32,756 nucleotides of DNA from Catajapyx aquilonaris (GCA_000934665.2 JYFJ02004350.1:1-32756); one strand, 5' to 3'; positions 811 to 29,432 are shown, numbered from the stretch's first letter. A program made the numbers and translations. The notes: a model not told the origin generated them from the sequence alone.

Positions 811-1064
811 TGTAATGGCTAGCGGCTATCTCTGAGCTGGACAAGTAGCGGCTACTCTTGGCGTAGGAATCGCGCTTAGACGCATCCTTCTCTCTCAGGT
901 GGCGATGGGAATGCACCCACAAAAGAAAAAGAAAAAAGAAGAAAAAAAAACCAGCCGTTGAATCAAAGATGGCCGAAGAAGAACTTCTCTAGTGAAGACA
1001 CGAGGAGGAGGGTCCTGCGGCTTTAACTTCCCGACGATTTCAACTTGGATTCAGGCATAGCAAG
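811..1064 (+). promoter_or_regulatory. Unit 1 promoter cassette and putative non-coding exon 1
   Basis: TAGCGGCTATC (820), GTAGCGGCTACT (845), GGAATCGCGCTTA (866), GGTGGCGATGGGAATGCACC (898), A-tract, AATCAAAGATGGCCGA (961, YY1-like). Donor CAAG|GTGGGC at 1064/1065 and acceptor TTGCAG ending 1172, just before the ATG. The cassette recurs before every unit. Confidence 0.7.
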
Positions 1065-1176
1065 GTGGGCACTACTTGGTTGACCTTTGCCCGCCACACC
1101 ACAGAGAAAATGTTCCTCCTGTGCAGCTGATTTGTGTGCTGCTTCATGTGCTGATGTTGCTGTGCATTGCAGGGCC

Positions 1177-2355
1177 ATGTCGTTGAGGGTCAAGGAGGAG
1201 GAAGGGCTGGAAGATGATGGGGAGGTGGCTGTGGAGGAGATGGCGCAGGTGCACGTGAAAGAGGAGATCCCAACGCCCTTTGAAAATGGCGAGACAATGG
1301 GTGTCACACCCGTGGAGGTCAAAGAGGAGCCACCGGATGAGGAGATGATGGTGGCTATGCCTGGTGCTGTTGAAGAGGTAGACGACCCTTTGGTCACTAA
1401 ACCTAAAAGAAGGAAGCGGTTTGACTGCCAAGTGTGCCAGAAATCACTTGGCACCAAAGGTTATTTGGAAATTCACATGCGAAACCATACGGGAGAGAAG
1501 CCCTTTTCCTGCCAATTCTGCCAGAAGAAATTTATTGGGAAAAGTCATTTGAAAAGCCACATGAGTGTGCACACGACAGAGAGACCACATTCATGTGAGG
1601 TGTGCCAGAAAAGATTTAGTGTTATGCGGGATTTGAAAAGGCACTTGCGAATTCATACTGGGGAGAAACCATTTCAGTGTGAGGTGTGCCAGAAGAAATT
1701 TGGCGAATCATATCAGTTGAAAATTCACATGCGAATTCATACAGGGGGAAAACCATATAGTTGTGAGGTGTGCCATGAAAAATTTAATTTACCAATTCAT
1801 TTGAAATATCACATTTCAATTCACACTGGCGAGAAACCATTTCAGTGTGAGGTGTGCCGGAAGAAATTTCGTCTTGAAAGTCATTTGAAAACTCACATGC
1901 GAATTCATACAGGAGAGAAACGATTCAGTTGTGACGTATGCCAGCAGAAATTCAGTGAATCAAGTAATTTGATATGCCACATGCGTATTCATACAGGAGA
2001 AAAACCATTCACTTGTGAGGTGTGCCAGATGCAGTTTCGTAATTCAAATGGTTTGAAAAGGCACATGCAAATTCACACAGGTGAGAAACCATTTACTTGT
2101 GAGGTGTGCCAGAAGAAGTTACGTACATCAAGTAAGTTGAAAACTCACATGCAAATTCATACAGGAGACAAACCTTTTAGTTGTGAGGTGTGCCAGAACA
2201 AATTTCGTGATTCAAGTGAGTTGAAAAAGCATTTGCGAATTCATACAGGGGAGAAACCATTTAGTTGCAAATATTGCCAGAAGGCGTTTAGTGACTCATC
2301 TGGTATGAAGAGACATATGCGAAGACACGCAGGTGACAGGCCGGTTCAGGTGTAA
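1177..2355 (+). CDS. C2H2 zinc-finger protein, unit 1: acidic psi-KxE domain fused directly to 11 fingers (392 aa, single coding exon)
   Basis: The ATG at 1177 follows a splice acceptor (cattgcag|ggccATG), as in the paralogs. 11 CxxC-x12-HxxxH repeats with TGEKP-type linkers; N-terminus has three VKEE motifs and DDPL. Confidence 0.93.
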   Translation: MSLRVKEEEGLEDDGEVAVEEMAQVHVKEEIPTPFENGETMGVTPVEVKEEPPDEEMMVAMPGAVEEVDDPLVTKPKRRKRFDCQVCQKSLGTKGYLEIHMRNHTGEKPFSCQFCQKKFIGKSHLKSHMSVHTTERPHSCEVCQKRFSVMRDLKRHLRIHTGEKPFQCEVCQKKFGESYQLKIHMRIHTGGKPYSCEVCHEKFNLPIHLKYHISIHTGEKPFQCEVCRKKFRLESHLKTHMRIHTGEKRFSCDVCQQKFSESSNLICHMRIHTGEKPFTCEVCQMQFRNSNGLKRHMQIHTGEKPFTCEVCQKKLRTSSKLKTHMQIHTGDKPFSCEVCQNKFRDSSELKKHLRIHTGEKPFSCKYCQKAFSDSSGMKRHMRRHAGDRPVQV

Positions 2356-2825
2356 TTTCTTTTCTGAAGGAAATGTGAAATGGCAGCCCATTGGAAAGAC
2401 CATCTGTGCATAACACCCTGAAACATCTGCTTTGTTGTAATTATATTTACATAGAGAGTGTGTGAAAACATTATTAGAAATGTACTGCAGTACATGGAAG
2501 ATGCACAATATAAAGCGAGCTATGCTCACCTTCGCTTATTTATTTCCTTTGCCCCCCCCACACACGTCACTCATAAGCATGATGAGGTACAGACATCTCA
2601 GTGAGATGCACACCAGGTGTATTTCGTGGCCAAAAGCTCCCCGCAAACCTAATAGTTCATTACTGGAAGCCTCGACATCCTTTCTGAAATTAATTATTCG
2701 AACATAATACGTACATTCAGCAACATTTTAAACTTATTATACTATTGCAAAGATGGAGGCGACTTCTGACAACTTGAGTGCATTTTAAATGGATTATGAT
2801 CAATATTTCCATATTCGTGCAATAA

Positions 2826-3035
2826 GTAGCGGCTATCTGAGAGCAGCAGTCGCCAGTAGCGGCGACTGGCAGGGAAGGAGTAGCGCTTAAGGCCTTCCTT
2901 CTCTGTTGTGGTGGCGATGGGAATGCGCCCTCATTTGCATTTTAAAAAATCGAACCAAAGATGGCCGACGAAGAGTGTCCGTCGTGAAGAGACGAGAAGA
3001 GCGTCCGTTGCCTCTCTTCCCTCGCCTGGAACTTG
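2826..3035 (+). promoter_or_regulatory. Unit 2 promoter cassette and putative non-coding exon 1
   Basis: GTAGCGGCTATC (2826), GTAGCGGCGACT (2856), GGAGTAGCGCTTAA, GGTGGCGATGGGAATGCGCC, ATTTGCAT, AACCAAAGATGGCCGA (2953). Putative donor CTTG|GTAGGT at 3036. Confidence 0.65.
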
Positions 3036-3197
3036 GTAGGTTGAGCTGATTGCATCCGCCCCACGCAAAGCATGACATGGTGTCACTTCAGCCATCCAAA
3101 GCATGACCACGGAATTAGATCTGAAGGAAAACAGAACGATGGTAGCTAGGCCTGTGTCCATCTAACATGAGCTGGTTGCATTGTGTATTACAGGACC

Positions 3198-6100
3198 ATG
3201 GCATTGCTGCCCATGAGAGTGAAGAAAGAAGAAGAGCTTGATGGAGAAGAGGAGGACATCACAGTGGATGAGGAGACTTGGAGGCTGCGGTTGAAGGAGG
3301 AGACCCCTTCTTGCTTTGATGGTGGCTCTGCTCTCATAGAAGACACGCTTCGTGAGGTAAAGGAGGAAGCAGGGGAGGAGGAGGAGGAGATGGTGGTGGC
3401 CATGCCTGGGGAGGTTGATGTTGAAGATGACCCTTTATCTGTTGGTTCTGGAAGGATGAGTGGGGTATGTCATCTGATTAAAATGTGAAATAATGTGACA
3501 GTATATTTTGAATATGCTGCAGTGATGTGAAGGATGATGTGTATAACTTGCATTTTCCTTACTCATTTACATACTTTAGGGGAAGGGAATGCTTAGCCCA
3601 GATGTGTTAGCCTTTGGTGACCAATATTCTTTCAGCCAGTGTTTAGTCATATTCTCCCATCTCCATCACCTTGAGCTATCATCCTTGTGCCAAAGCCTTA
3701 CTTCTGGTCTGTTGTACCCCGCCTCTCCTTTGAACTTTGACACTGATGGAATTGGAACTGTCAGCCCGCATTATACGTATTTGTTGCATGATGAATCATA
3801 ATTATGTGCGCAACTAGGGTTGTAAAAAAAGCCAGATATTTTGCCTGCCCGAAAAAAAACCTTTTGGGAAAAAATTGTTTTCCTCATAATATATTTACTT
3901 TTTTCCCAATGATTTGGGCTTTTTTTTTTTTTTGCACACTACCAAGTTCTTATTATTTCCCACTGTTCAGAAAAGTCAAATTAATTAATAGCTGAAATAA
4001 ATTAAGGAAAACGAACCACACTACATTTGATTCTGGATTTTTGGTGGAGGATAACCTGAAGGACTTCAGGAACCAATCACTGCATCAAAAGTGTTTTCGG
4101 TGGGAATATTTTGTCACTGTTTAGGCCAAAAAAGAGTCCATATTGCAGTGATTTGGGAGACTCTTTTGTTGTATACTTTGCTTCATTTCACTGGCTAAGA
4201 AGCCAATATTATAATACAGTATGATAGACGGCAGTCACAATAATGTACCCCATAAGTGTTTTATGAAAAACGCCTACACTGGTTGATGTTATGTCACATT
4301 ATATTTTTTTTACATTATTGATATTTCATATTTTTTGCTCCATTGTTTTCATGCCAAATCATATTGTTACTTGAAGATCACCAAAGACCAGTTGGCAATT
4401 TCAACTGGTTTTCTTGCTGCTTGGTTTCCTTTCATCTCCATGATCAAAATTTAGTCATCCAAAACGTTATATCCGTCCAGTTTATTGGCATTTGCCAGGT
4501 ATTTGCGTTAGATGAAAATGTTGAAATGGGCAGCAAAATGCATGATAATTATAACTGGCAAATAACCTGACAATCTCTTTGGATATTTGTTGATATAATT
4601 ACACATTACATGTAAAATTGGATTTGATGATTGAAACCATTTTAAAACAAGGGGACAGCAAAAGATAATGATGTATTTTGTTTTGGTCCTGCATAATTTA
4701 TGGATGAGCTAATATTGCAATTTTGTGGCTAGTTTCCTTAATCAGTGTGCAGTAATGCGTAATGCAGCATATGCCTATGGGAAGCAGAAAACTAGGGTAC
4801 TTGTTGCAAAATTGGTGATCTGGCTATAACAAACCTCAGTTATAACATAGTGTTTTTCCTCGGCCCCTTGAAGACTGTTATATCCAGATTCAACTGCACT
4901 AGATGTGGGCTGTCGAATGGTATCGTCATCATTATAGGAGTGCAGCAAGTCATCATAATATAATTGACGGCTTTTCGTGTGTTTGTCCAGGGTGAGATGC
5001 CAGTCAGATGCATCTTGTACCATGACCCTTTGCATGGCCATGAGAGTGGCAGACGTGTGCAGGGAGGGAGGATGTGCCACCTTTACTTTATCTTATACCT
5101 TGAGAGGGGCATTGTGTACTACATTCACAGTTGGGGACACAAGTATTTTTGGACAAGTTTTGGCAAGGGTGCACTAGTTGGAAATTTTAAGGTAAGTGCA
5201 TTAAAACCTTGACGCAGGTGATGGATATGTTCAAAATTATTCAACTGTTTCAAGTACATTCAGATGTGATGGTTGGGGAGGGGGCATGTGCTGCTCATTC
5301 CTCTGACACATACTGTTATTGTCTGTCTTATGAATATCTCAGGCTGTCGCACTGTGTGATGTAAGCGTATTACAAATGCTACAAGAGACTTTGCTATAAG
5401 GCGTGCCTTCCCAATAGCCAAAAGACATGTTGAAATCTTTACTACATCCACCCTCCATAATGGTAATTGATATGCTGCAATTCAATTTCCAGGAAATGCA
5501 AGAGGAGGATCAAGTCAAGAAGGAAATGATTACTAGGACCTGTGATAGCGGCAAGCCATTTGATTGCCAAGTGTGCCAGAAAAAGTTTTGGAATGCAAGT
5601 ACTTTGAAAATTCACATGCGAATTCATACAGGCGCGAAACCATTTAGTTGTGAAGTGTGCCAGAAAAATTTTTGTGTGTCAGGTAATTGGAAATGTCACA
5701 TGCAAATTCACACGGGAGAAAAACCATTTACTTGTGAGGTATGCCAGAAAAAGTTTCGCGAATCGAGTAAGTTGAAAGCCCACATGCGAATTCATACAGG
5801 TGAGAAACCACATCAGTGTCAGGTGTGCCAGAAACGATTTATTACATCAAGTGACTTGAAAAAGCACATGCGAATTCATACAGGAGAAAACCCATTTAGT
5901 TGTGAGATATGCCAGAAGGAGTATCGCCATTCAAATACGTTGAAATCCCACATGTCAATTCATACAGGCGAGAAACCACATCAGTGTCAGGTGTGCCAGA
6001 AACGGTTTATTACATCTGATTGTTTGAAAGGTCACATGCGCCATCATACAGGGGAGAAACCATTTCAGTGTGAGGTGTGCCAGAAGAAGTTTAGTCTGTC

Positions 6101-6245
6101 ACGTAATATGAAGGTGCACATGCGAATTCACACAGGCGAAAAACCATTCAGTTGCAAAATTTGCCAGAGGGAATTTCGATATTCCAGTCATATGAATAGA
6201 CATATGCGAAGAAGACATGCAGATGAAAAACCTGTTCAGATGTAG
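3198..6245 (+). CDS. C2H2 zinc-finger protein, unit 2: acidic domain + 8 fingers (339 aa); exons 3198-3464, 5493-6245
   Basis: acag|gaccATG start. Donor GGG|GTATGT at 3465 and acceptor ttccAG|GAA at 5492 join in phase 0 (intron 2028 bp). 8 C2H2 repeats. Confidence 0.9.
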
Positions 6246-6969: not shown

Positions 6970-7190
6970 ATAACGGTTGTCGCTGCGCAGGATAGCGGCG
7001 ACTGTCGAGGAAGGAGTAGCGTTTAAGGCCTTCCTTCTCTGTTGTGGTGGCGATGGGAATGCGCCCTCATTTGCAAAAAAAAAAAAAAATCGAACCAAAG
7101 ATGGCCGACGAGGAGTGTCCGTCGTGAAGAGAAACGTGAGCAGCCTCCGTCGACTACTCTTCCCTGGTTGTGATCGTCGCCTGGAACTTG
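6970..7190 (+). promoter_or_regulatory. Unit 3 promoter cassette and putative non-coding exon 1
   Basis: TAGCGGCGACT (6993), GGAGTAGCGTTTAA, GGTGGCGATGGGAATGCGCC, AACCAAAGATGGCCGA (7093), donor CTTG|GTAGGT at 7191. Closely matches unit 2. Confidence 0.65.
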
Positions 7191-7394
7191 GTAGGTTGAG
7201 GGGCAGTGAGATCTTTGAGGGGGGTACCAGCTGCATGCATGATTGGCATGGCTGAGTAAAATGAACGACCACAAAAATGCGATGAAGAAAAAACATAATG
7301 GTAGGCTGCACTTCTCAGTCTTCGCATTTTGAGGGCAAAATAATTATTCCCTTTTTTCCCCTAACATGAGCTGGTTGCATTGCATTACAGGACC

Positions 7395-10300
7395 ATGGCA
7401 TTGGCCCCGAGAGTCAAGGAAGAAGAAGGGCTGGAAGGAGAAGACGCTGCTGGTGACGGAACAGTCACAGCGGAGGGTACCTGGCAGGTTCCCTTGAAGG
7501 AGGAGACCCCTTCATGCTTTGATGGTGGCTCTACTCTCACAGAAGACACTCTCCTCGAGATCAAGAAGGAGGAAGCGGAGGAGGAGGAGATGGTGGTGGC
7601 CATGTCTGGAGTGGTTGGAGGTGAGGATGACCCTTTGGCTGGTGATTCAGGAAGTATTATTGGGGTATGTCATCTGATTAAATTCTGAAATAACGTGACT
7701 ATATTTTCAGTATCATGCTGCAGTGATGTGATGGATGAGGTGTATAGCATGCATTTTCCTTATTCATATACACACTTTAGGGGAAGGGAATGCTTAGCCC
7801 AGGTGTGTTTTCCCTTTGGTGACAATATTCTTTCTGGCAGTGTTTAGTCCTTCTTTTTTTTAAACCCCGTGATAGAGCTCTTGGCCCTCTTAGGGGAAGG
7901 GGAGGTTCCCAAGGGAGGGCGCTCAAATTTTTTGTCATTTCTGACAATGTGAAATACACCAGACCTTTTCTGCTGGCCCCGGGCAGAGTAGGGAGTGCAA
8001 TTCTGCCCCGGCATGTCGGGTGAAAAGCGGAAAAAGACCCGGCCAAGCAGAGGTGACGGGGACGGGATTTGAACCCCGGCCTCCTGCTTGGCTGGCCAGC
8101 GGCGAAACCGCTAGACCACCATTGTTTAGTCCACTTTAGTCATATTCTCCCATCTCCACCCCCTTGAGCTATCATCCTTGTGCCCAAGCCTTACTTCTGG
8201 TCTGTTGTACCCCGCCTCTCCTTTGAACTTTGACACTGAACTGATGGAATTGGAACTGTCAGCCCGCATGATATGTGTTTGTTGCATGATGAATCATATG
8301 TATGCAACTAGGGTTGTAAAAAAGCCAGGTATTTTGACTGCCAGAAAAAAAAAACCTTTTGGGAAAAAAATTGCTTTCCTCATAATTATATTACTTTTTT
8401 TGTAATGTTTTGGGCTTTTTTTTGCACACTACCAAGTTCTTCTTATATCCCACTGTTCAGAAAAGTGAAATTATCAATATTAATATCAGAAACTAGCAGG
8501 TTACCTGGCGTTGCCCGGGTATGTTGGGGTGCTGGTAAAGGTAGGGGTACATAGACAGTATTTTAGGAAGTGTGTGTGTGTGTTTGTAAAAATTTCTCTT
8601 CCATACACGCGAAACTCGATATGTCTTAAAATAGGCCCTATAAGTTGCAATAAGCCAAAGTTTCTCACTATCTGTGATAGATTACCTGCTTGTCTTAATA
8701 GCGTATAGTCGACACAGATATTCTGATTGAATGTGTAAAAAGAGGAATGCGGATGGAGTTGGCCCAGGAAAAGACTGCACAGCCATGTGTTTTTTCCCTG
8801 CAATTTTGACCCCTTGACCCCCCCACCCCACTTCACACCCCTACCTCGTTCCATATATGTTTGCTCTGAAGAACTTTCGAAATGTAGCCTACATTGTTAA
8901 TTGTTAATAAGTTAATTGTTGAGGCCTGAGTAGTGAGAAGATTAGGGAATATGCGTGTTGCGGGAGTTAGGTTCATTTTTGGAAGCTGAAACATGCCGAG
9001 TTAAATTCCTTGAAAAATGTAACCCCCGATATGCTAATTTAAGGTGGTGTAGGAGCCTTCCCCTGGATTACTATAAGGGACAAACAAACTCACAAACTCA
9101 CAAACAAACTCATTTATAGATATAGATAAATAGAAGAACACGAACCACACTACATTTGATTCAGGATTTTTTTGGAGGATACCCAGAAGGACTCCAGGAA
9201 CCAATCACTGCATCAAAAGTGTTTTCAGTGGGAATATTTTGTCAATGTGTAGGCCAAAAAGAGTCCATATTGCAGTGATTTGGTAGAATCTTTTGTTATA
9301 CTTTGCTTTATTTCACTGGCTATAAAAAGCCAATATTATAATACAGTGTGATACAGGGCAGTCACAATAATGTACCCCATAAGAGTTTATGAAAAATGAC
9401 TACAGTTGGTTGATGCTATGTCACATATTATCCCAAAAAATATTGATATGATATATTTTTTGCTCCATTGTTTTCATGCCAGATCATATTGTTACTTGAA
9501 CATCATCAAAGGGCTGTTGGCAATTTCAACTTGTTTGCTTGCTGCTTGGTTTCCTTTCAGCTCCATGCTCAAAATTTAGTCAACCAAAACATTATATCTG
9601 TCCAGTTTATTGGCATTTGCCAGGTATTTTCTTTAGACGAGAGTGGCAGAAGTGTGCAGGGAGGGAGGATGTGCCTCCTTTACTTTACCTTATACCTTGA
9701 GAGGGGTATTGTATACTACATGCACAGTTGGGGACCCATGTATTTTTGGCCAAGTTTTAGTAAGGGGTTCACTAGTTGGAAATTTTAAGGTAAGCGGGTT
9801 AAAAACTTGACGCAGGTGATGGATATGTTCGAAATTATTCAACTGTTTCAAGTACATTCCAATGTGATGGCTAGGGAGGGGGAATGTGCTGCTCATTCCT
9901 TCAACACATACTGTTATTTTCTGTCATATGAAGATCTCAGGCAGTCGCACTAGTGTATTACAAATGATACAGGAGCCTTTGCTATAAGGATTCCCTTCCA
10001 AATGGCCAAAAGACATGTTCAAACTTTACTACATCCACCCTCCATAATGTTAATTGCTGCAATTCAATTTTCAGGAAATGCAAGAGGAGGATCAAGTCCT
10101 GAGGAAAATGATTACTAGGACCTGTGATAGAAGCAGGCCATTTGATTGCCAAGTGTGCCAGAAAAAGTTTCGGAAATCAGGTAATTTGAAAATGCACATG
10201 CGAATTCATACAGGCGAGAAACCATATCAATGTGAGGTGTGCCAGAAAACATTTGCGGAATCAAGTAAGTTGAAAAGACACACGCGAATTCATACAGGCG

Positions 10301-10908
10301 AGAAACCATTTAGTTGTGAATTTTGTCAGAAAAAATTTGGTGAATCAAGTTATTTGAAAGCCCACATGAAAATTCACATGGGAGAAAAACCATTTACTTG
10401 TGAGGTGTGCCAGAAAAAGTTTCGCCAATCCTGTAAGTTGAAAGCCCACATGCGAATTCATACAGGAGACCAACCATACATTTGTGAGGTGTGCCAGAAA
10501 ATATTTATTGAATTAGGTCCTTTGAAAACTCACATGCGAATTCATACAGGAGAAAAACCTTTTAGTTGTGAGGTATGCCAGAAGGAGTATCGCCATTCAA
10601 ACAAGTTGAAAACCCACATGTCAATTCATACAGGCGAGAAACTCCATCACTGTGAGGTGTGCCAGAAACAGTTTATTACATCTTATTGTTTGAAAGTTCA
10701 CATGCGCCATCATACAGGAGAGAAGCCATTTCAATGTGAGGTGTGCCAAAAGAAGTTTAGTCAGTCACATAGTGTGAAGGCGCACATGCGAATTCACACA
10801 GGCGAAAAACCACTCGGTTGCAAAATATGCCATAAGGAATTTCGATATTCCACTCATATGAATAGACATATGCGAAGACATACGGATGAAAAACCTGTTC
10901 AGTTGTAG
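7395..10908 (+). CDS. C2H2 zinc-finger protein, unit 3: acidic domain + 9 fingers (367 aa); exons 7395-7664, 10075-10908
   Basis: acag|gaccATG; donor GGG|GTATGT at 7665; acceptor tttcAG|GAA at 10074; phase 0; 9 C2H2 repeats. The intron aligns with the unit 2 intron. Confidence 0.9.
7851..8122 (-). mobile_element. tRNA-derived SINE (family A) with 10-bp TSD
   Basis: Minus strand has A-box TGGTCTAGCGG, B-box GGTTCAAATCC and an A-rich tail. Flanked by TGTTTAGTCC at 7841-7850 and 8123-8132. Absent from the homologous site in the unit 2 intron (~3640-3650). Confidence 0.85.
8493..9126 (-). mobile_element. Non-autonomous Helitron
   Basis: On the minus strand it starts 5'-TC, carries a (TTTG)n-like microsatellite near the 5' end, and ends in an imperfect hairpin (ACCCGG-GCAACG-CCAGGT) followed by CTAG-3'. 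Inserted between A and T with no TSD; the empty site gaaa^taaa is present in the unit 2 intron (~3985-3991). Confidence 0.85.
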
Positions 10909-11337
10909 TAATATATTTTCTGAGAGACATGTGAAATGGCAGCCCATTGGAAAGACCATCTGTGCGTAACACCCACAAGCATCTGCTTTGTTGTAATTAT
11001 CTTTATGGAAAGAGTGTATGAAGACATTATTAGAAATGTACTGTACAATCATGTAAGATGCGAAATTGTCCATAAAGTCCGTTATGCTCATCTTGACTTA
11101 TTTCCTCCCCTTGTCCAATGTGAATGTCACTCAGCGTCATGATGGGGTACAGACTTCGCGGTGAGATACATGCACAGGAGGTGTCAGATAACATGATTTC
11201 CTTTCCACAATCCTTCCAAAAAACATGTAGTTTTTACTGGATCTCTTGAACCTTCCAAGCACCCCCTGCCCCCTGGGGTGTGCGGGCACCCCAGGTTAAG
11301 AACCGCAGCAGTAAGTAGTACATGTAGTGTAATATTA

Positions 11338-11564
11338 ATAGCGGATATCGCGAAGTAGCAGTGGTAGTAGCGGCGACTGCTGAGGTAGGAAAAGCGCTTA
11401 AACCCATCCTTCACGCTCAGGTGGCGATGGGAATGCACCTCAAAAGAAAAAAAAGAAACCGTTGAATTAAAGATGGCCGACCATGTCTGTCGGGAAGGCA
11501 GGAGGAGGGGTCGTGCGTCTTTAATTTCCTGACGATTTCAACGTGGATTCAAGCATATGGCAAG
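11338..11564 (+). promoter_or_regulatory. Unit 4 promoter cassette and putative non-coding exon 1
   Basis: GTAGCGGCGACT (11367), GGAAAAGCGCTTAA, GGTGGCGATGGGAATGCACC, AATTAAAGATGGCCGA (11465). Donor region CAAG|GTGGTAAC at ~11565. Confidence 0.65.
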
Positions 11565-12518
11565 GTGGTAACTTACGTGAGTGTGTTGAGAGTACGTTTG
11601 TGTCAGTACCATTGATGTCTGCCTTGTGAGTACTGTACCACAGGCTAAAGATATTCGTGGCGTTGCCAATTATTGTGTCAGGATTAACTAGGACTCGTTA
11701 AGGGTTTCCTGCTGCCTAACCGAGAAGGTTGGAATTCTTAAGTAAACGTATGCCAGGGTGGTGTACTATAATAGTTTGCAGAAGCACCACTGCTGAGACA
11801 CACAGCTCATCAACCCAGATGGCTATGTGATGCGGGACAATGACACTCTGGGCAAGCAGTGTGATTTCCAAACCCTGTGATCCTAAATGGGGCTGCGGTT
11901 CACTCCCTATTAGTGTAAAGTAGTAAACCTTTTTAGCCGTGGTAAAGCACATAGATGTTCTCTCTTCATTAGCCAGCTATTCTGCTTATTTATGAGAAGT
12001 ACTCCGTGAGCAGAATAGTCCAAACGTTTTCCAGAAGAAACACTACTAGTATATGGTAAATTGTAGTATTTTCATTAAACTGGATTTAAAGCAGCATACA
12101 CTATGTGCAGTAGCTTATTTAAGGCATTTGAAAGCTCATTTTTACTGTATCTAAGCCCATTATCAGATTATTCCTCTTTTCCGATTATCTGGGCACACCA
12201 AAGCATTGATTAGTACTGATAATCGGGAGTACAGTGTACATACACACACATTTACCAATGAGAATAAGTTGGAATAAGTGATATTAAGCAAGGGAAAAGT
12301 AGACACAAAAATATGCAAATGTGCAAAATCTGTAGTATTCAAATACGCTTCATCAAAATACATCATTCTGGTGTAGTTTCAGCCATTCAAAATATGGCCA
12401 CAATATGCGATGAACAGAAACAGAACAATGGTGGGCTGCATTTATGGCAATTTTGTATGCAAAATAAATTATTCCCTATTTCCCCCTAACATGAGCTGTT
12501 ACATTGTATGACAGGACC

Positions 12519-18323: not shown

Positions 18324-18564
18324 TGTAATGACTAGCGGCTATCGCTGAGCTGGACAAGTAGCGGCGACTCTTGGCGTGGCAATCGCGCTTAGACGCATCC
18401 TTCTCTCTCAGGTGGCGATGGGAATGCACCCACAAATGAATGGGAAGAAAAAAAAGAAAAAGAAATCAAAGATGGCCGAAGAAGAACTTCTGTTGTGAAG
18501 ACACGAGGAGGGTCCTGCGACTTTAACTTCCCGAAGATTTCAACTTGGATTCAGGCATAGCAAG
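18324..18564 (+). promoter_or_regulatory. Unit 7 promoter cassette and putative non-coding exon 1
   Basis: Nearly identical to unit 1 (811-1064): TAGCGGCTATC, GTAGCGGCGACT (18358), GGTGGCGATGGGAATGCACC, AATCAAAGATGGCCGA (18464). Donor at 18565, acceptor ending 18672. Confidence 0.7.
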
Positions 18565-18676
18565 GTGGGCACTACTTGGTTGACCTTTGCCCGCCACACC
18601 ACAGAGAAAATGTTCCTCCTGTGCAGCTGATTTGTGTGCTGCTTCATGTGCTGATGTTGTGGTGCATTGCAGGGCC

Positions 18677-19508
18677 ATGTCGTGGGTCCTGAGGGTCAAG
18701 AAGGAGGAAGGGCTGGAAGAAGATGAGGAGGTGGCAGTGGAGGAGATGGCGCAGGTGCACGTGAAAGAGGAGATCCTACTGCCCTTTGAAACTGACGAGA
18801 CAATGGCTGTCACACCCGTGGAGGTCAAAGAGGAGCCACCGGAGGAGGAGGAGATGGTGGCCGTGCCTGGTGCTGTTGAAGAGGGAGGTGACCCTTTGGC
18901 CGGAGGTTCTGGAAGTACTAGTGGGGTATGTCGTCTGCTGAACATCTGATATAACGTTACAGGATATGTACATCATGCTGTACTGTACAGCACCTTTCAA
19001 GTGACCAAACGAAATGTGGAAATTTTTACAGCATCCACCCTGAATGATTGAGGTTGATGTGCTGAAATTCACTTTTCAGGCATTGCAAGTGAAAGGTCAT
19101 CATGTCAGTATGAAGAAAGCGGTCAAGAAGAAAAAGATCACTAGGCCTCGTGATGGAAGCCAGCGGTTTGACTGCCAAGTGTGCCAGAAATCACTTGGCA
19201 CCAAAGGTGGTTTGGAACTTCACATGCGAAACCATACGGGAGAGAAGCCCTTTTCCTGCCAATTCTGCGAGAAGAAATTTATTGTGAGAAATCATTTGAA
19301 TAGCCACATGAGAAATCACACTTCAGAAAGACCACATTCTTGTCATATGTGCCAGAAAAAGTATTTTACGTCGCATGAGTTGAAAATTCACATACGAACT
19401 CATTCAAGAAAAAAAACATTTCAATGTGATGTGTGCCAGAAGGAGTTTCAAAAAGAGTATGCATTGGAATATCACAGGCGAATTCATATGCAACCTATTC
19501 ATAATTGA
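18677..19508 (+). CDS. C2H2 zinc-finger protein, unit 7: acidic domain + 4 fingers (225 aa); exons 18677-18925, 19080-19508
   Basis: gcag|ggccATG; donor GGG|GTATGT at 18926; acceptor tttcAG|GCA at 19079; 154-bp phase-0 intron; 4 C2H2 repeats. Confidence 0.9.
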
Positions 19509-19924: not shown

Positions 19925-20344
19925 CAGTAAACGGTTTCCCTCCAGAGAGGAGCCATTTAGTAAATGGGTTCCCTCCGGAGAGGAGCCATTCTAGTGTATG
20001 GTTTCCCTCCAGAGAGGAGCCATTTTAGTATATGGTTTTCCTTCGGAGAGACACCATACACTATATGGGTTTCCCTCCGGAGGGAAACACTTTTACTAAA
20101 TGGCTCCTCTCCGTCGGAGTACATGGTTTTTCTCCAGAGAGGAGCCATTTCAGTAATGAGTTTCTCTTGGGAGAGACCGGGGAGAGACGCCCTCTCCGGA
20201 GAGAAAGCCATACACTGGAAGTGCGTCTCTCCGGAGGGAAACTAATTTACTGGATTGGCTCCTCTCCGGAGGGAAAACCATGTACTCTGAAGGATAGGCG
20301 CAATTTCAGTAAATGGGTCCCCTCCGGAGGGAAACCGTTTACCG
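19925..20344. mobile_element. Foldback/MITE-like element with ~40-bp TIRs, built from ~33-bp palindromic subrepeats
   Basis: Left end CAGTAAACGGTTTCCCTCCAGAGAGGAGCCATTTAGTAAA matches the reverse complement of the right end at 34/40 positions. About 11 internal copies of GGTTTCCCTCCGGAGAGGAGCC-like units in both orientations. No TSD found. Confidence 0.7.
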
Positions 20345-21074: not shown

Positions 21075-21300
21075 AGTCGCCGCTACGCGATTTATGTCCT
21101 AATAGACCACGAAAAAAAAAGGGAAGATCATCAAAGTTAATGAAATTTAGAAGCTAATCTAGAGATAAATTCTGGTGATCATTGAATAATTATCTAGGGA
21201 TTTCTAGAAATAATAAGATTTAGGGATTTGTGTTCTCTAATGACTGGCAACACTTCCGCCGCATAAAAAAAAAGAAAAGAGAAATCAAAGATGGCCGCCG
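21075..21300 (+). promoter_or_regulatory. Putative promoter of the Harbinger-derived gene, sharing motifs with the zinc-finger cassette
   Basis: AGTCGCCGCTAC at 21075-21086 is the reverse complement of GTAGCGGCGACT. An A-tract precedes AATCAAAGATGGCCG at 21283-21297. Confidence 0.6.
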
Positions 21301-21418
21301 ACTGAAGCTTGTGGTTCCACGCTTGTTCTTTTGATTCGATCTTGAAGAAGTGTAGAGGCGTAGAGAGGACATAGCCTCGGAGACGGAGATCGAGAGAGGG
21401 AGGGAAGGAGGGAGCGCG

Positions 21419-24353
21419 ATGGCTGGACGTGAGCTGGAGTTGCAGCGGCTGCAGGTTGATCTCCTCCTAGTGTACTTGTACTACCGGAGGAGGGTGCGGC
21501 AGAGGCATGCTCTGGCACTACAGGCCCAGCAAGAGGCCCAGCAGGAGGCCCAACAGGAGGCCCAGCAGGAGGCCCAACAGGAGGCCCAACAGGCCCAGCA
21601 AGAGGCCCAGCAGGCCCAGCAACAGGCCCAGCAGGCCCAGCAACAGGCCCAGCAGGCCCAGCAAGAGGCCCCTCGGAAGCATCGACGGAAGCGGAGATAT
21701 GGAGTGTCAGAACTGTGGCAGAAGAGGAAGGAGCTGGGTCAGTTCCACACTCATGTAAGTAATTTTTTCAATACCTCGCACATACTAGATATCTGCAAGA
21801 ATTTCCTGCCCAGGCAAGGGCAACTATATTGTACCGGTATGTGTTGTAACGTGTAATTGTTGTAACCAGTTGATAGCCAACTGTGTTTGGAATGTTTAGA
21901 GCCAGGTTTGTTCTTGAGGAGCCGAACCATGAAGTCGGCTGTGTCCTCAGCTCTCACTTGTATGATACCACTTGCCTGGAGAGCTTAATGATACATCTGC
22001 TAGTTCAATGGACAGTTTATCAAAGTACTACAATGGTTTTTTGTATATTTCAGATTGAAATCAGGAGCAGGGGAGATGATGATACCTATTTCCGGGAATT
22101 CCTGCGCATGTCACCAGAAGCTTTTGACAGATTAACAGCACTCGTCCATGATAGCTTGAAGAAATATCCGACATCCGGGGAAGCGCTATCTCCTGCACAC
22201 AGGCTGGCAATAACATTGAGGTATGTATATTGACCACAAATCTTCAATTCTGCTCAAAAAAACTCAAACATGAATTACCAATAATTTATAATTACTGATA
22301 AAATGCCAATATCCTGCTCGTGCAATTCAGGAATCTGCTACAGATGTAAACATTCCCAACTACGAGGGAAAGTAGCAAGGCACTCTGAGTACATGACAAG
22401 TAGCACTTGCACTCTGGAAACAAACACTTGACAAGTGCATAAATATGGTGGGGGGACCAGTATTAAATATTAGCGTCTGCTTCATGTGACATGCCTGATG
22501 TAATATAAGTGGTGATAAGTTATATTTCAAGTGCATGATCTACCCTTACAGATATTTAGCTACTGGTGATAGCTATTATAGTGTGGGTTCTGCTTTCTGC
22601 ATTGGAGTAACAACTGTGCATGTAATAATCAAGGAGACCTGTGACGCCCTCTGGAAGATTTTGCAGCCCATATATCTTAAGGTAAGCGGGTTACATGACT
22701 TGAAAGATGGGGAGGGATTGTTGTACGTGAGTACATTGTGGCCCCAACATCATTGCACAATGCTTCTCAAATTCATATTTGTAGAATCCTCAAACTGAAG
22801 ACTGGGCCAAGGTGGCCAAAAATTATGGAGAGAGGTGGCAGTACCCGTTATGCTGCGGTGCCGTGGAGGGAAAGCATGTTGTTATTGAACAGCCCAACCT
22901 CAAGGTTTGTACTTTTAATGTACACTTTCATCCATTTTGTAACATGTGAACAGCTACCATTAACTTCTGCTTTGTATCTTCAGAAATGCGACTCAATTGT
23001 TTTGATGGCAGTAGTGGGCCCAGACTACAAATTTGTCTGTGTAGATATAGGAAATTATGGCTCCAGGGCACATGGGCATGTGTTTGGGGCCTCATACCTG
23101 GGGAAGAGACTGGCCGAGGGAAACCTGGACTTCCCCCAACCCACCACCCTCCCTCGAACAGACACTGTGGTTCCCCATGTCTTTGTAGGAGACACTGCCT
23201 TTCAACTGAAGCCGAATGTTATGAGACCCTACCCTCCAGAAGATCTCACATCCAAGAAGCGGGTTTTTAACTACAGATTGAGTCGAGCAAGGTAGGTATT
23301 AGCAGGACTTGAAACAGGAATCTCACTCTGAACTGAATAGCCTCAAATTTGTCAGTCCCCACCAGTCACACACTTATTGCATGATTTTTCTACTAGGATT
23401 GCATTTCCTTGCACAACATTGTTTTACAATGCCTACAGCATTAAGGGCGGCATTAACATAATATGCTTTAAAACCGAACATAGATGGTGATCAAGGCACA
23501 GGGACATTAGAAACGTCAGACTTCACATTAAGCATGACCTACTGCTACACAGTGTATTTTCATTGTTGTGAACCACTACTATTAAACCTATCAGACCTAC
23601 TCAACTTTGGGGTGGGTGCACCAACTCCCTCTGCGTTACCCAGTTAGTTGTTGAATTTACCGTGGCAACCTGTGTTGATGTAGAGGCACTGAACAGGCCA
23701 GGAGTACGTTGCTGAACTCAGCGGCTACCGCAGCAGAGGTAAACAAGTCGTTGCTAAACTCAGCTGTGCTGACAGCGGCTCGCAGCCGCTGAGTTTAGCA
23801 ACATCCTCTAGTTTTCTTACACCCAGCCCTAAACATAGAGGTGCGTAGGTCCCTTGGTGTGTCAGTTTACAACAGATATGGATTTGTGACATATTATGTT
23901 ATCCAGAACAGACGGAGACCTTGACTCGCCTAGACATGCGAGTGACTTCAATGTAACTTAAGCCCATGCTTTCCTTTCAGACGCTGCAGTGAAAATGCTT
24001 TTGGGATTCTCTCACAGAAGTGGAGAGTGTTCCAAAAGCCTATGCCCCTGTGCGTAGACAATGTCAGCAAGGTGACACAAGCCTGCGTGGTGCTCCACAA
24101 TTTCCTACTGGAGACAGAAGGTCAGCCTGGAGCAGTCCAGATTTATTGCCCACCAGGGTTCACCGACTTTCTGGACCCCAATGGTGGCATCCAAGAAGGC
24201 ACCTTCAGGCAGGAAACTAGTCAGTGTTTGGGCCTGGTTGACTTGTTGCCCACATCAGCCAAGAACTTTCACCATGCTGCTGGGTGCGTGCGACGTGTCT
24301 ATGCGGACTACTTTTCATCTGCACAGGGCGAGGTTCCCTGGCAGTGGAAATGA
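21419..24353 (+). CDS. PIF/Harbinger transposase-derived protein (HARBI1-like, DDE_Tnp_4-type fold), 477 aa; exons 21419-21754, 22054-22220, 22552-22681, 22785-22904, 22984-23291, 23981-24353
   Basis: Five GT-AG introns with compatible phases (0,2,0,0,2) give 1434 nt with no internal stop. Harbinger motifs: FLRMSPEAFDRL, RLAITLRYLATG, WQYPLCCGAVEGKHV, SIVLMAVV, FVGDTAFQL, FNYRLSRARRCSENAFGIL, ACVVLHNF. Confidence 0.9.
21521..21670 (+). repeat. Coding minisatellite (9/12-bp units) encoding (QQEA/QQA/QQQA)n
   Basis: caggcccagcaagaggcccagcaggaggcccaacag... in frame in exon 1 of the Harbinger-derived gene. Confidence 0.9.
23594..23851. mobile_element. Degenerate MITE in intron 5 of the Harbinger-derived gene
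   Basis: Outer inverted repeats GACCTAC...TTTGGGGTGGGTGCA / TACACCCAGCCCTAAA...GTAGGTC. Inner inverted repeats GTTGCTGAACTCAGCGGCT (23708-23726) / AGCCGCTGAGTTTAGCAAC (23784-23802), one mismatch. Confidence 0.55.
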
Positions 24354-25494: not shown

Positions 25495-28011
25495 ATGCCT
25501 TTGATCCTGAGGATAAAGAAGGAAGGGGAAGTGAAGGAGGAGGACATCACAGTGGATGAGGAGAGCTGGAGGCTGCCCTTGAAGGAGGAGACCCCTTTTT
25601 GCTTTGATGGTGGCTCTACTCTTACAGAAGACATGCTTCCTGAGATCAAGAAGGAGGAAGCGGAGGATGAGGAAGAGATGGTTGTGGGCATGTCCAGGGT
25701 GGTTGAAGATGAAGATGACCCATTGGCAGTGCGTTCTGAAGTGATTAGTCAGGTATGTACAATATGCTGAAAATGCAGTATCATTTTACACAAAAAGTTA
25801 CACCAAATCATCAATCCAAGTCAAACACTCATGCTTGGAAGATGTTTTAGGATTTCTTAATCACTCACTTGGCTCCCCTTGAAACATCCTCGTGATCTTT
25901 GACACTAACTGTTTAATATCACATTCATACCGAAGCAGGTTGTGGTGGAGGGGTTTAGCCATCCGACTGCTAATCGAGAGGTCCTGGGTTCGATTCCCGG
26001 GTCGTGGTTTTCTATGGTTTCCCACGGCCCTCCCAGGAAAATTCTGGGGTCCCTTCCGTAAACAATAGGCCACAGCCGCTTCCTCCCTTTTCTATCCTTG
26101 GCCCATCAATGGGGAGGTGCTGCGTCGGCAAGGGTCTCTAACCCGCACTACCTTGGGGGTTGTTTTGCAATCTGGCCCTCTGGGGGACTGCACACAACCC
26201 ACACATAAGGCACTTGCACCCTTGTCCCCTCCTCATAAATCCCTATCCTGATCCCTGCACCCGAGAGAAAAATGCGAAAGAAAAATTCGTAAGAAAAATT
26301 GTGGTATTCCACCGACCTATTGCTCCAAGCACGGGGTAGCAAATTTTAAAAAATCATAATAATATCACTTTCATAAAATAACCGGACTTTTCNTATTATT
26401 ATTATTATTATTTATTATTTTTTTCGAAATTCCAAAAACCTCAAAATTGTCATAATCCCAGTTTTTAAAGTGCAGACATGAAATGCACCAAAAATATGGA
26501 AAATTACATGTTAGCATAACTAGATTGGCAACACTACCTCTGCCGTCATGTGTAAGACGACCGTAACTCACAAACTAGTACGGGTGAAAGTTGCATGCAT
26601 ATGCCCTGCAAGGGGGTATGTCCTGCTGATTCCTCCAACACATTCTGTTCTTTTCTGCAATAATTATTCTCATTACACAAGTTTGTTGTGGGGAAGCAAA
26701 GCATAATGGATACCCCGTGACAGGCCTCCTTGGGCCTTTTAGGGGATCATCTTTTAATTCACAGACTTTAATCATTTGCCTGTACTGTGATTGTTGATTT
26801 TTTTAAAAGTGGATAGGAAATGGGAGAGCCCCAAGAAAACCCATGCAAACATGGAGAGAACCCATCGAAACTCTATCCACATAAGTATCCTCCATCCGAC
26901 CCGGGGATCGAACTCGGGACCTGAGCGGTGGAAGGCTGTGGCACTGACCACTACGCCACGGTGTCGCCCTTACTCACTTTGAGTCTTACCTCTGGGTAAT
27001 TATGGCTTGAATCAAGACAGAGACAGAAGTAAACCGGGATTCTATTAAATGCTTTAATCTCAAGATACCAAAAATGGAATATTACCCGATGTCTTAGCTG
27101 CCCTCCATTAGAGTAAACTGTGGCATCCATCATGTGTGAGTATGAGATCTGTGTTGTAATAATTAATGGGTCTCTTCCCCTTACTAAGTGAAGCATAAAG
27201 AAGTATGCCCTTCTGTGTAGTGATGATGACTCCCTTCGTATGTCTGCTTCCATGGTGACCTTTTCGTTAGAAGCTCTTTCCTCAGAATGTGTGGGTGTAG
27301 GAAGTGGTGAAAAATGGCAGGAAAAGAAAGTATTGCGCAAAGTCCCATTACCTTACAATATGAAGTTATGAGGCAGATTCACCATGAGATGTCTCTGCAG
27401 TACAAATTCTGCAAAACACATTGTAATAAGGGTTGCATTCTCAATTACTAGAAGACATGTGGACATATTTACAGTATCCATCGAGCATAATGGACATTGA
27501 TATGCTGCAATTCACTTTTCAGGAAGTGCAAGAGGAAGGGGACGAAGAAGAAAAGATAAGCAAACCTGATGATAAAAGCAAGCGATTCGATTGCCAAGTG
27601 TGCCAGAAATCACTTGGCACCAAACGTGGTTTTAAACTTCACATGCGAATCCACGCTGGAGACAAGCCCTATGCCTGTCACTTCTGTGAGAAGAGATTTG
27701 TTCTGTCAAGTCATTTGCAAAGCCACGTGAGATACCACACTGCTGAGGAACTATATTGTTGTCACATATGCCAGAAAAAGTTTATTGTTGCTCGTGGTTT
27801 GAAAAAGCACATGCATATTCATACAGGAGAGAAACCATTTAAATGTGAGGTGTGCCAGAAAGGGTTTGCTAGAGCGTATACTTTGAAAATTCACTCCAGC
27901 ATTCATACAGGGGAGAAACCATTTCAATGTGAGGCGTGCCAGAGCAGATTTTATGCAAAGCATCTGTTGAAAAAGCACATGCTAATTCATACAGGAGGTA
28001 GACCCTTTTAA
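25495..28011 (+). CDS. C2H2 zinc-finger protein, unit 8: acidic domain + 5 intact fingers (248 aa); exons 25495-25752, 27523-28011
   Basis: gcag|gaccATG; donor CAG|GTATGT at 25753; acceptor tttcAG|GAA at 27522; phase 0. An N at 26393 in the intron may mark an assembly join. Confidence 0.82.
25935..26150 (+). mobile_element. tRNA-derived SINE (family C)
   Basis: A-box-like TGGTGGAGGGG (25943) and B-box GGTTCGATTCC (25987), followed by a body (ggtttcccacggccctcccaggaaa...ggccacagccgcttcctccc) that resembles conserved invertebrate SINE cores. The 3' end is uncertain. Confidence 0.7.
26795..26969 (-). mobile_element. tRNA-derived SINE (family D) with V-domain-like core
   Basis: Minus strand: A-box TGGCGTAGTGG, B-box GAGTTCGATCC, then gttctctccatgtttgcatgggttttcttggggctctcccatttcctatccac, which resembles the V-SINE central domain. 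Confidence 0.7.
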
Positions 28012-28446
28012 TGTGAAGTGTGCCAGAAAGAGTTTCCTAGAGCACATGATTTGAAAGTTAACTCGAGCATTCATATACAGGGTAGAAACCATTTCAATGT
28101 GAGGTGTGCCAGAAGAAATTTAACGTTAAATGTAATTTACAAGTCCATATGAAATCTCACACTGGAGAGAAACCATTTAGTCGCAAAATATTGTCAGACC
28201 AAGTTTGCTTATTTATGTAGTACAGTATGAATGTGCAAATACAGATTCACACTAGTTTAAAAAAAAATTAATTGCAAATAATGTGAGGACATTTAGTCAG
28301 TCAGGTAACGTGAAAACACAGTCATAATGTGCGACTGAATACTGGTCAAAAACCCTTTAGTTGCAAGAATTTCCAGATAGTGACTCAAGTGGTGTGAGGC
28401 GTCACATATGCAAACACACACAGATGAAAGACCTGTTCAGATGTAA
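28012..28446 (+). pseudogene. About five decayed C2H2 fingers downstream of the unit 8 stop codon
   Basis: After TAA: CEVCQKEFPRAHDLKVNSSIH, a frameshift, [28 protein letters not shown], further broken fingers, and the family C-terminus gatgaaagacctgttcagatgtaa (DERPVQM*). Confidence 0.85.
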
Positions 28447-28754
28447 TTTAATTTCTACCAAAAAAAATTAAAGTGGAGCTCATTGGAAAGATATATGCTG
28501 CCTTGTTAATTTTTTTTACACAAAGAGTATATGAACACATGATTACAGAAATGTACAGTTGTTTGTGTGGCATACTCACCTTGGGTTAATTTTCTCTCTC
28601 CCTCTGCCCACCATGCATGTCACTCATAGTCATGATGGGGGTACTGACTTCCATTTGCCATGCGCAACTGATGGTGTCAGACAACATGCTTTCCCTGGCT
28701 TCTGAATGAGCGGGAAGGGGACCTCGCCGATTGTCCTGAAGCCAGAAGTCTTCC

Positions 28755-28905
28755 TTAGCTGCTATCGCAAAGCACTACTAGTAGCGGCGACTAGTGAGGA
28801 GGAATAGCGCTTAACACCATCCTTCATCTTTTGTGGCGATGGGAACGCACCTCATTTGCATAAAAAAAAAGAAAAAAAAGAAAATGGAAATCAAAGATGG
28901 CCGAC
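28755..28905 (+). promoter_or_regulatory. Unit 9 promoter cassette
   Basis: GTAGCGGCGACT (28781), GGAATAGCGCTTAA, GTGGCGATGGGAACGCACC, ATTTGCAT, A-tract, AATCAAAGATGGCCGA (28889). Confidence 0.7.
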
Positions 28906-29051
28906 TGAACGATCTTCTGTTCTAATCGGTTTTGATTGTGGGTTTGATTCGCTAGAAGTGTCCAGAGAGAGTGAATCGAACTCGTTTCAACCCGTCTCAT
29001 TCCCTAGAATTCGTTTGGTCGCCTGGAATTATTGGAAGTGTTCCTTGCACC

Positions 29052-29432
29052 ATGTCTTTGATGCTGAAGATAAAGAAGGAAGAGGAAGAGGAAGATGGAA
29101 CAATCACAGTGGAGGAGACCTGGCAATTGCGGTTGAAGGAGGAGACCCCTTCTTGCTTCGATGATGACTCTAATCTCATGGAAGACACTCTCCGTGAGAT
29201 CAAGAAGGAGGCAGCGGAGGAGGACATCACAGTGGACGAGGAGAGTTGGAGGCTGCGGTTGAAGGAGGAGACACCATCTTCCTTTGATGGTGGCTCTACT
29301 CTCGTGGAAGACACCCTCCATGAGATCAAGAAGGAGGAAGTGGAGGAGGAGAAGGAGATGGTGGTGGCCACATCTAGAGAGGACGAAGAGGAAGATGACC
29401 CATTAGCAGGAGATTCTGGAAGGACTAGTGGG
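29052..29432 (+). CDS. Unit 9 acidic-domain exon (127 aa, duplicated module); partial gene, finger exon not within the window
   Basis: MSLMLKIKKEEE...DDPLAGDSGRTSG with donor GGG|GTATGC at 29433. No finger exon seen through 32756. Confidence 0.75.

Follow-up and report, generated by a model that had tools for sequence, protein, structure and literature searches.

A tandem cluster of C2H2 zinc finger genes in Catajapyx aquilonaris with a possible disordered SUMO-acceptor array as head

The window, i.e., the whole analysed stretch of 32,756 nucleotides of Catajapyx aquilonaris (GCA_000934665.2 JYFJ02004350.1:1-32756), carries on its plus strand nine exons encoding an acidic module (g1 to g9; 1177-29432), and the gene parts given below lie on this strand. 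The first gene begins with a promoter cassette and a putative non-coding exon 1 (810-1089), in which a donor-like AAG/GTGGGC is found at 1065. It has no coding intron, its module (1177-1392) being fused to 11 C2H2 fingers in a single ORF that ends with TAA (1177-2355). In g2, a promoter cassette (2823-3045) is followed by an acidic exon of 89 aa with the donor GGG/GTATGT (3198-3464) and by a finger exon with eight fingers (5493-6245), and g3 is built likewise with cassette (6993-7200), acidic exon (90 aa; 7395-7664) and nine fingers (10075-10908). The cassette of g4 (11336-11568) lies ~950 bases upstream of the ATG of its acidic exon (90 aa; 12519-12788), and its finger exon (13525-14124) is probably in decay, with five intact fingers, one finger broken by a His to Pro exchange and the family tail in another frame. 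The unit that builds the module is duplicated in g5 (cassette 14489-14720; acidic exon of 128 aa, 14832-15215; four fingers, 15485-15904) and in g6 (cassette 16684-16933; acidic exon of 119 aa, 17055-17411; four fingers, 17824-18276), while g7 encodes a module of the g1 subtype (cassette 18323-18589; acidic exon of 83 aa, 18677-18925; four fingers, 19080-19508). Further downstream, the acidic exon of g8 (86 aa; 25495-25752) ends with a variant donor, and its finger exon (27523-28011) contains five fingers and a stop within the array, beyond which decayed fingers extend to ~28217. The last gene, g9, has a cassette with two mismatches in its core block (28756-28921) and again a duplicated unit (127 aa; 29052-29432), and no finger exon was found in the 3.3 kb that remain to the window end.

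The donor of the acidic exon directly follows a codon in eight of the nine genes, as GGG/GTATGT or, in g8, as CAG/GTATGT, and seven finger exons have the acceptor TTTTCAG/G in the phase that matches the donor; acidic exon and finger-array exon are thus connected by a phase-0 intron in seven of nine genes. One promoter cassette with invariant blocks lies upstream of eight of the nine genes (8 matches vs 0.00 expected). For g8 an intact cassette is missing nearby, and only its 3' half is represented, by a partial and diverged copy (21250-21330) that lies 4.2 kb upstream, ahead of a Harbinger-like gene. A short non-coding exon between promoter and acidic exon would fit the sequence, since an acceptor-like CAG stands 3-4 bases ahead of the ATG in eight of nine genes and donor-like sites (AAG/GTGGG or TAG/GTTGAG) are found within the cassette in six of the eight genes with an intact one and, by eye, in g4. 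The earlier note had described a single layout for nine tandem genes, each with a promoter cassette and usually a non-coding exon. The coding part of this layout applies to the seven genes with phase-0 intron but not to the intronless g1 or to g9, fingerless in the window; damage was found in g4 and g8. The cassette precedes all genes except g8, which has no intact one nearby, and the donor- and acceptor-like sites fit a putative upstream exon, although g9 has no AG ahead of the ATG. The resemblance to KRAB-ZNF genes that had been pointed out holds, as the N-terminal module has its own exon, the finger array lies in one exon together with a basic stretch and the genes are tandem copies.

The eight arrays comprise 50 fingers of the polydactyl C2H2 type, i.e., tandem C-x2-C-x12-H-x3-4-H fingers with TGEKP-type linkers (PF00096, PF13465), and in Pfam g1 matches zf-H2C2_2 with E 1.1e-86 and zf-C2H2 with E 3.3e-52. 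Ahead of the first finger lies a basic, NLS-like linker of the KKAVKKKKI type. Entropy within the fingers is maximal at helix positions -1, 2, 3 and 6, and in eight of nine paralogue pairs the contact positions differ in 63-83% of cases vs 15-32% elsewhere. The DNA-contact residues are diverging far faster than the finger scaffold.

The module had been called unrecognised, and the searches bear this out. In Pfam, the eight stand-alone acidic exons belong to no family, and for the fused g1 only finger families occur among the 25 of 36 matches listed. KRAB (PF01352) did not match any of the eight stand-alone exons at E up to 1, ZAD (PF07776) gave no Pfam match and its conserved cysteine quartet is not in the alignment, and SCAN (PF02023) and BTB gave no Pfam match either. 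DUF5975 was hit by two of the nine modules (E 0.005, 17 bits vs a cut-off of 25) and was treated as a composition match. A profile of the nine exons retrieved no genuine relative from 1.84 billion representative proteins; its six matches owe their scores to summing over domains, none of which exceeds 9 bits, and those three that were inspected (P0001, P0003, P0006) contain many repeats but no C2H2 fingers. A word search of longer proteins with the g2 exon yielded 831 candidates, none at E <= 0.001. The full g1 protein retrieved 7943 matches, all via the fingers; identity does not exceed 58% in the 120 that were listed. P0007, which ranks first, has an N-terminus colinear with the module, but homology was rejected at an hhalign probability of 1.8% (E 0.027). 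As judged from these sequence comparisons, the module is in no protein catalogue. In the ESM Atlas, the first match was a chordate hypothetical cluster (0.92, 139 of 256 shared features) and KRAB fragments were among the look-alikes with a low score of 0.79, both of which are taken as leads only. A literature search for the finger-associated repeats of Xenopus remained without result.

The module comprises 72-128 aa and consists of a ~40-aa unit, which is duplicated in three genes (g5, g6, g9); it has a net charge of -17 to -27 and conserved W, F and L within the unit. Each module contains three to five [ILV]KxE motifs. In total, 32 were counted in the nine exons vs 2.3 expected from shuffles, whereby the nine copies are paralogues and the counts no independent events, for which a test on invariant columns is a partial correction: of the alignment's 14 invariant columns, five belong to the six key columns for K and E(+2) (P = 7.6e-4). 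For each of the nine exons the observed motif count was reached in just 0-3 of 2000 shuffles, and 45 of the 50 module lysines fall in [ILV]KxE windows. The reversed motif does not occur in the nine modules, and [ILV]RxE occurs once. Psi-KxE is the best conserved and most non-random feature of the module. The earlier consensus for the module was essentially reproduced in the nine-exon alignment, and the claim of three or more psi-KxE motifs per module agrees with the counts. Of the SUMO motifs proposed there, the psi-KxE array was borne out, while the part on SUMO-interacting motifs (SIMs) is weak: at the conserved MVVAM position a strict SIM core is found in one of nine modules (g6, VVAI), the other eight ending with M, T, V or D-M, and DITVDEE fits the canonical acid-flanked core ([VIL][VIL]x[VIL] or [VIL]x[VIL][VIL]) in no module. 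Opposite the acidic exons lie long antisense Ser/Thr-rich ORFs, which we regard as a side effect of the GAR-rich coding sequence.

AlphaFold2 predicted neither helix nor strand for the module (pLDDT 59.6, pTM 0.14), which, with a shallow alignment of nine paralogues as input, is weak evidence for disorder. We infer from this model that the product of the acidic exon is an effector head that is intrinsically disordered and does not form a folded domain. Every module carries the SUMO acceptor consensus (psi-KxE with acidic downstream context), and no fold is predicted. A motif match is by itself no demonstration of SUMOylation. Based on the sequence, we consider it somewhat below even odds, at a probability of about 0.45, that the cluster represents a lineage-specific, tandem KRAB/FiNZ-like C2H2 family with a disordered SUMO-acceptor array as head.

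Acidic stretches containing W, F and L are typical of activation domains, too, and psi-KxE sites can damp activity in the manner of synergy-control motifs. Together with the net charge, the conserved W, F and L of the unit and the predicted disorder, this would suit a head that acts as acidic activation domain, in which these residues bind co-activators and psi-KxE merely damps. We regard this as unlikely, as the invariant columns are the lysines and the +2 glutamates, whereas W and F are substituted in the g1/g7 subtype. Moreover, the repressor families KRAB and FiNZ have a similar gene layout and likewise fast-evolving fingers, and most SUMOylated transcription factors repress according to one paper. 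Similarly low is the probability that the head serves one dedicated corepressor or adaptor as docking peptide, contacted through TWRLxL, MVVAM and DDPL, with psi-KxE being incidental or modulatory. V59 and D70-P71-L72 do not vary, and behind the acidic run the MVV core is conserved; binding of KRAB to TRIM28 offers a model, a co-immunoprecipitation of FiNZ with TRIM33 was reported, and the KRAB fragments among the language-model look-alikes, a lead only, point the same way. However, a docking peptide leaves unexplained why 45 of 50 lysines lie in [ILV]KxE and why the reverse motif is missing, and neither a predicted structure nor KRAB similarity in Pfam speaks for it. The extreme acidity beside a linker and a finger array that are both basic might also suggest that the acidic part acts intramolecularly, as a DNA-mimic competitor that sharpens finger specificity or as a solubility tag and thus not as an effector, but charge alone requires no fixed lysines, no motif direction and no constant spacing, which makes this quite improbable. 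That the cluster is mostly a graveyard of recent duplicates without current function is the most improbable explanation: two genes (g4, g8) carry damage, the g9 seen in the window is incomplete, dN/dS is ~1 for the two close pairs g1-g7 and g2-g4 and a poly(A) signal is absent from the first 900 bases past three of eight stops, but in six or seven genes the frames are open, the splice sites kept and the fingers intact, the median dN/dS of the module is 0.39 (36 pairs) and the promoter blocks are invariant.

In the reading of the head as SUMO-acceptor array, its working parts would be the three to five psi-KxE lysines in their strongly acidic setting, which the SUMO E2 enzyme Ubc9 would modify directly. 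The fast-evolving fingers would choose the sites, and the multi-SUMO head would bring SIM-bearing chromatin repressors there, candidates being methyltransferase complexes of the SetDB1/Windei type or Sov-like proteins; in Drosophila, SUMO was reported to recruit SetDB1/Wde. The head would thereby act as a KRAB/FiNZ-like repressor with its own SUMO acceptors, none of which would be borrowed via a TRIM28-type adaptor.

A psi-KxE-rich acidic region ahead of the fingers is not peculiar to this family. The pre-finger regions of 116 unrelated multi-finger proteins from fish, aphid-like species, beetle and prawn, which were matches of the search with the full g1 protein, contain 209 [ILV]KxE motifs vs 34.3 expected. 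Like the module, these proteins have acidic, repeat-built N-terminal regions with repeated IKEE, VKxE or IKxE; unlike copies of the module, they show no significant homology to its unit. The unit profile reached 8.4 bits at best against the 116 regions, and homology was rejected, six of the 116 regions reaching 3 bits vs 0.75 in shuffles. With ~3.6 motifs per 100 aa, the module lies at the top of the range of these regions. Given the roughly six-fold enrichment of psi-KxE in the 116 unrelated proteins, the SUMO logic is probably a general feature of multi-finger proteins and not a special invention of this cluster. Possible, though doubtful, is a still broader view: the head would be a self-contained SUMO-acceptor array, by which a DNA-bound zinc finger protein becomes a SUMO platform that needs no TRIM28-type adaptor to recruit heterochromatin enzymes with SIMs, and the six- to eight-fold, direction-specific psi-KxE excess ahead of the fingers in unrelated multi-finger proteins of fish, insects and crustaceans would reflect a general effector logic of fast-evolving ZNF families, of which this family would be the most condensed example.

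The way in which fast-evolving ZNF families act on chromatin has been described mainly for KRAB in tetrapods and FiNZ in cyprinids, and dozens of uncharacterised ZNF families are mentioned by Wells et al. (2023; PMC10547256). The module is compact, with 72-128 aa, and offers a hypothesis that can be tested by mutation of the psi-KxE lysines. If true, it would constitute a TRIM28-independent path from DNA recognition to SUMO-dependent silencing and would account for the pre-finger psi-KxE enrichment across many animal lineages, and the module may serve as a small portable effector in tethering experiments.

Among the known systems, the ZAD-ZNF proteins of insects (PF07776) are described as a lineage-specific, tandem-expanded arthropod multi-finger family with a common N-terminal module as well, but ZAD folds into a zinc-binding dimerisation domain and has four cysteines, while the module has at most one or two and no predicted fold. 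The silencing domain of Panoramix from the Drosophila SFiNX complex is reported to be, in analogy to what is proposed for the module, an orphan disordered repressor region with several psi-KxE motifs; it has five consensus sites, for whose SUMOylation E1/E2 suffice without E3 ligase, and recruits, by SUMO and a hydrophobic motif, the SIM-bearing heterochromatin factor Sov (10.1101/2021.07.27.453956). Unlike the family described here, Panoramix is a single gene and guided by piRNA and nascent RNA instead of zinc fingers, and sequence similarity between Panoramix and the module is neither claimed nor found. The tetrapod KRAB-ZNF genes share the effector exon apart from a single finger exon, the tandem expansion and the fast-evolving contacts, and SUMO-SIM recruitment of SETDB1 belongs to the KRAB/TRIM28 pathway. 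In contrast to the module, KRAB is a defined TRIM28-binding domain, and the SUMO is carried by TRIM28, whereas the putative acceptor sites here lie on the DNA-binding protein itself. FiNZ itself contains psi-KxE motifs. The cyprinid FiNZ-ZNF family is described as having a short, Glu-rich N-terminal module without similarity to known domains, encoded by an exon of its own, finger array and NLS-like stretch together on the second coding exon, and large tandem families with diversifying fingers (Wells et al., 2023; PMC10547256). The same two-coding-exon layout is found here, with the phase-0 intron in seven genes and the basic linker ahead of finger 1. FiNZ differs in its length of 28 aa, compared to the module, and is described as cyprinid-only (PMC10547256); the nine-exon profile search of the 1.84 billion representatives found no fish proteins. 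Knockdown of FiNZ-ZNF genes was reported to derepress transposons (PMC10547256). Given the SUMO-attachment motifs as its best-kept feature, the head of the Catajapyx proteins probably switches target genes much like the vertebrate KRAB and FiNZ heads.

The cluster forms a genuine and clearly delimited gene family, a variant of the KRAB/FiNZ kind with an uncatalogued head. In the window, which is eukaryotic DNA with a G+C content of 39-47%, stop-to-stop frames reveal nine acidic reading frames plus eight arrays of C2H2 fingers, and every one of them lies on the plus strand. The acidic exons of the nine tandem genes, numbered g1 to g9 from left to right, start with ATGs at 1177, 3198, 7395, 12519, 14832, 17055, 18677, 25495 and 29052 (plus strand). 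GTATGT directly follows a complete codon of the acidic frame in eight of the nine genes (the codon is GGG, in g8 CAG) and TTTTCAG followed by G in matching phase precedes seven finger exons; as the donor lies exactly after a codon and the acceptors are in the same phase, the coding intron (154-2410 bases) is of phase 0. The KRAB-ZNF-like layout claimed in the earlier note, tandem plus-strand genes with an acidic effector exon apart from the finger exon, was thereby confirmed for the seven genes with this intron. That all nine genes share one layout holds for the acidic exons and has to be restricted otherwise: g1 is intronless, with the module continuous with 11 fingers and lacking the segment that borders the intron in g7, its closest paralogue; no finger exon of g9 was found in the remaining 3.3 kb of the window; g4 has one finger His replaced by Pro and the family-typical tail in another frame; and g8 carries a stop within its finger array, with decayed fingers beyond it.

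Between paralogues, the coding intron is 86-87% identical over its initial 43-46 bases (3465-3510, 15216-15258, 17412-17454, 29433-29478). In eight of the nine genes, the exception being intronless g1, the intron start leaves the frame open for 5-7 further codons before a stop (…GVCHLLKI), seven in all eight intron-bearing genes but g8, and a finger-less acidic isoform formed by intron retention is conceivable. At 300-471 a remnant of the family C-terminal tail (…MNRHMQRHA…) is accompanied by a copy of the common 3' flank (repeat D10); therefore, a further decayed gene copy lies left of g1 at the window edge. The gap after g7 contains a tandem array of ~34-base units (19926-20177, at least five copies).

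The claimed common promoter cassette is present as a block of ~250 bases upstream of eight of the nine genes, with 8 matches to a 20-base block (0.00 expected) and 9 to a 12-base block (0.25 expected), the ninth belonging to a partial cassette at 21250-21330 (~21.27 kb). Its several invariant blocks, including 898-917 and 965-976 with their seven or eight other copies (AGTAGCGGCGACT, GGTGGCGATGGGAATGCACC, an A-run and AATCAAAGATGGCCGA), are retained although the coding exons of the same paralogues are at 40-80% identity. The last block, AATCAAAGATGGCCGA, resembles a YY1/Pho-type ATGGC core. A pyrimidine-rich CAG lies 3-4 bases 5' of the ATG in eight of nine genes and an AG/GT donor inside six of the eight intact cassettes, with one more assigned by eye in g4, which fits a short predicted non-coding first exon; of this earlier claim splice-like signals were thus found and the exon itself stays a prediction from sequence. 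Between g7 and g8, after the partial cassette, a Harbinger/PIF-type transposase-like gene was identified (21356-24350, plus strand), with DDE_Tnp_4 in two ORFs (Pfam, E 1.6e-09 and 9.7e-06) separated by ~650 intron-like bases. This gene is possibly a transposase that was captured or domesticated, or else a plain insertion into the first intron of g8.

The acidic module shows 53% mean column identity across the nine translations, and a unit of ~40 amino acids is internally duplicated in g5, g6 and g9. As the earlier note had supposed, the module matches nothing recognised. None of the eight stand-alone acidic exons matched a Pfam family, and the families listed for fused g1 are all of finger type; KRAB, ZAD, SCAN and BTB are absent from both. 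The only near-match, DUF5975, stayed below the cut-off in two of nine modules (E 0.005) and was rejected. A nine-exon profile gave six matches at E <= 0.001 among 1.84 billion representative proteins; these were discarded as relatives, as each reaches its score only by adding up many domains of 9 bits or less, and the three inspected are repeat-rich proteins without C2H2 fingers. A word-based homologue search among longer proteins found no module relative. The fingers of g1 matched 7943 proteins from many animal groups in the same collection, which hence includes animal proteomes and makes the module's absence meaningful. Literature searches touching SUMO, zinc-finger proteins and modules at the N-terminus found no description of this one, which is not proof of absence.

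The claim of at least three psi-KxE motifs ([ILV]KxE, the SUMO-attachment consensus) per acidic exon proved well founded: the nine modules contain 32, where shuffling of the individual modules predicts 2.3, the count per module was reached by 0-3 of 2000 shuffles, and 45 of the 50 lysines lie within four-residue motif windows, although the counts are not independent because the copies are paralogues. The reversed motif E-x-K-[ILV] does not occur and [ILV]RxE occurs once. Of 72 alignment columns 14 are invariant. The three ancestral motifs contribute six key columns (K and E+2 each), and five of these belong to the invariant set (hypergeometric P = 7.6e-4); only one Asn, in a duplicated unit of g6, breaks the sixth. 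In the g1/g7 subtype most of the unit is replaced, including W and F, and all three motifs are kept. The case for the proposed SIM-like DITVDEE and MVV cores is weak: a strict SIM core is present at the conserved Glu-run plus MVV position in one of nine modules, and DITVDEE never fits.

AlphaFold2 returned neither helix nor strand (pLDDT 59.6, pTM 0.14), which is weak evidence for disorder because the nine-row alignment is shallow; the composition of the module agrees. In the best-supported reading, plausible but unproven, the head serves as a disordered array of putative SUMO acceptors: its psi-KxE lysines would be SUMO-modified, the modified head would repress, and this repression may be aimed at transposons. 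A precedent is the orphan, disordered silencing domain of Drosophila Panoramix with five psi-KxE sites, reported to be modified by E1/E2 alone, to lose modification upon K/x swap and to recruit the SIM-flanked protein Sov (bioRxiv 10.1101/2021.07.27.453956). SetDB1/Wde is reportedly recruited by SUMO in Drosophila and SETDB1 via TRIM28 SUMOylation in mammals, where KRAB zinc-finger proteins are themselves described as SUMO targets. Alternatively, the head could be a docking peptide for one adaptor; for FiNZ, co-precipitation with TRIM33 is reported. With a net charge of -17 to -27 the head could also be an acidic activation domain or, less probably, an intramolecular DNA mimic. Decay of the cluster is an improbable alternative; the median dN/dS is 0.39 over 36 module pairs, two young pairs being near 1.

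Motif excess, as in the putative SUMO-acceptor head, was also observed in other multi-finger proteins. In 116 of the best 120 of the 7943 g1 finger matches, 30 or more residues precede the first finger, and these regions contain 209 [ILV]KxE versus 34.3 expected from shuffles, with 26 reversed motifs and 9 [ILV]RxE; matches were selected by words shared with g1, and a few head words may bias this sample. Most of the motifs (IKQE, VKNE, IKTE, VKSE) have no five-residue word in common with g1. In 36 of the 116 regions at least three motifs occur, a count reached by at most 3 of 300 shuffles, as in proteins from an aphid-like insect (10 motifs in a repeated unit), pipefish (9), prawn and beetle. 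The unit profile found no real similarity in the 116 regions (best score 8.4 bits; at least 3 bits in six, versus 0.75 in shuffles), so that the shared feature is the motif in an acidic setting and not a homologous domain. Pre-finger tandem repeats with two SUMO-type motifs each recur without detectable homology in P0029, P0040 and P0064 (aphid-like insect, pipefish; 10, 6 and 9 motifs). The literature searches named above likewise found no account of a general psi-KxE excess, which is not proof of absence.

Across 48 fingers, each a 28-residue unit, column entropy is highest at positions 11, 12, 14, 15 and 18; the last four of these are helix positions -1, 2, 3 and 6. In eight of nine paralogue pairs these contact positions differ in 63-83% versus 15-32% elsewhere (Fisher p 6e-3 to 2e-10), an excess that could partly come from imperfect finger-to-finger alignment; in the pair g6-g7 they are no more divergent than the rest. 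Fingers 1 and 2 are conserved among g1 and g5-g8, and the linker ahead of them is basic, as in an NLS.

In layout, FiNZ-ZNF is the nearest known family. FiNZ is 28 amino acids long and described as cyprinid-only (PMC10547256), and the profile search of 1.84 billion representatives showed no sequence link to the module, the two being otherwise compared by the FiNZ description. SUMO occurs 0 times in Wells et al. (2023; PMC10547256), which is not proof of absence. Like the family here, FiNZ-ZNF proteins are described with a Glu-rich head of no known similarity that is encoded separately, by one exon, and with NLS and fingers in a second, and their knockdown is reported to derepress young transposons (PMC10547256).
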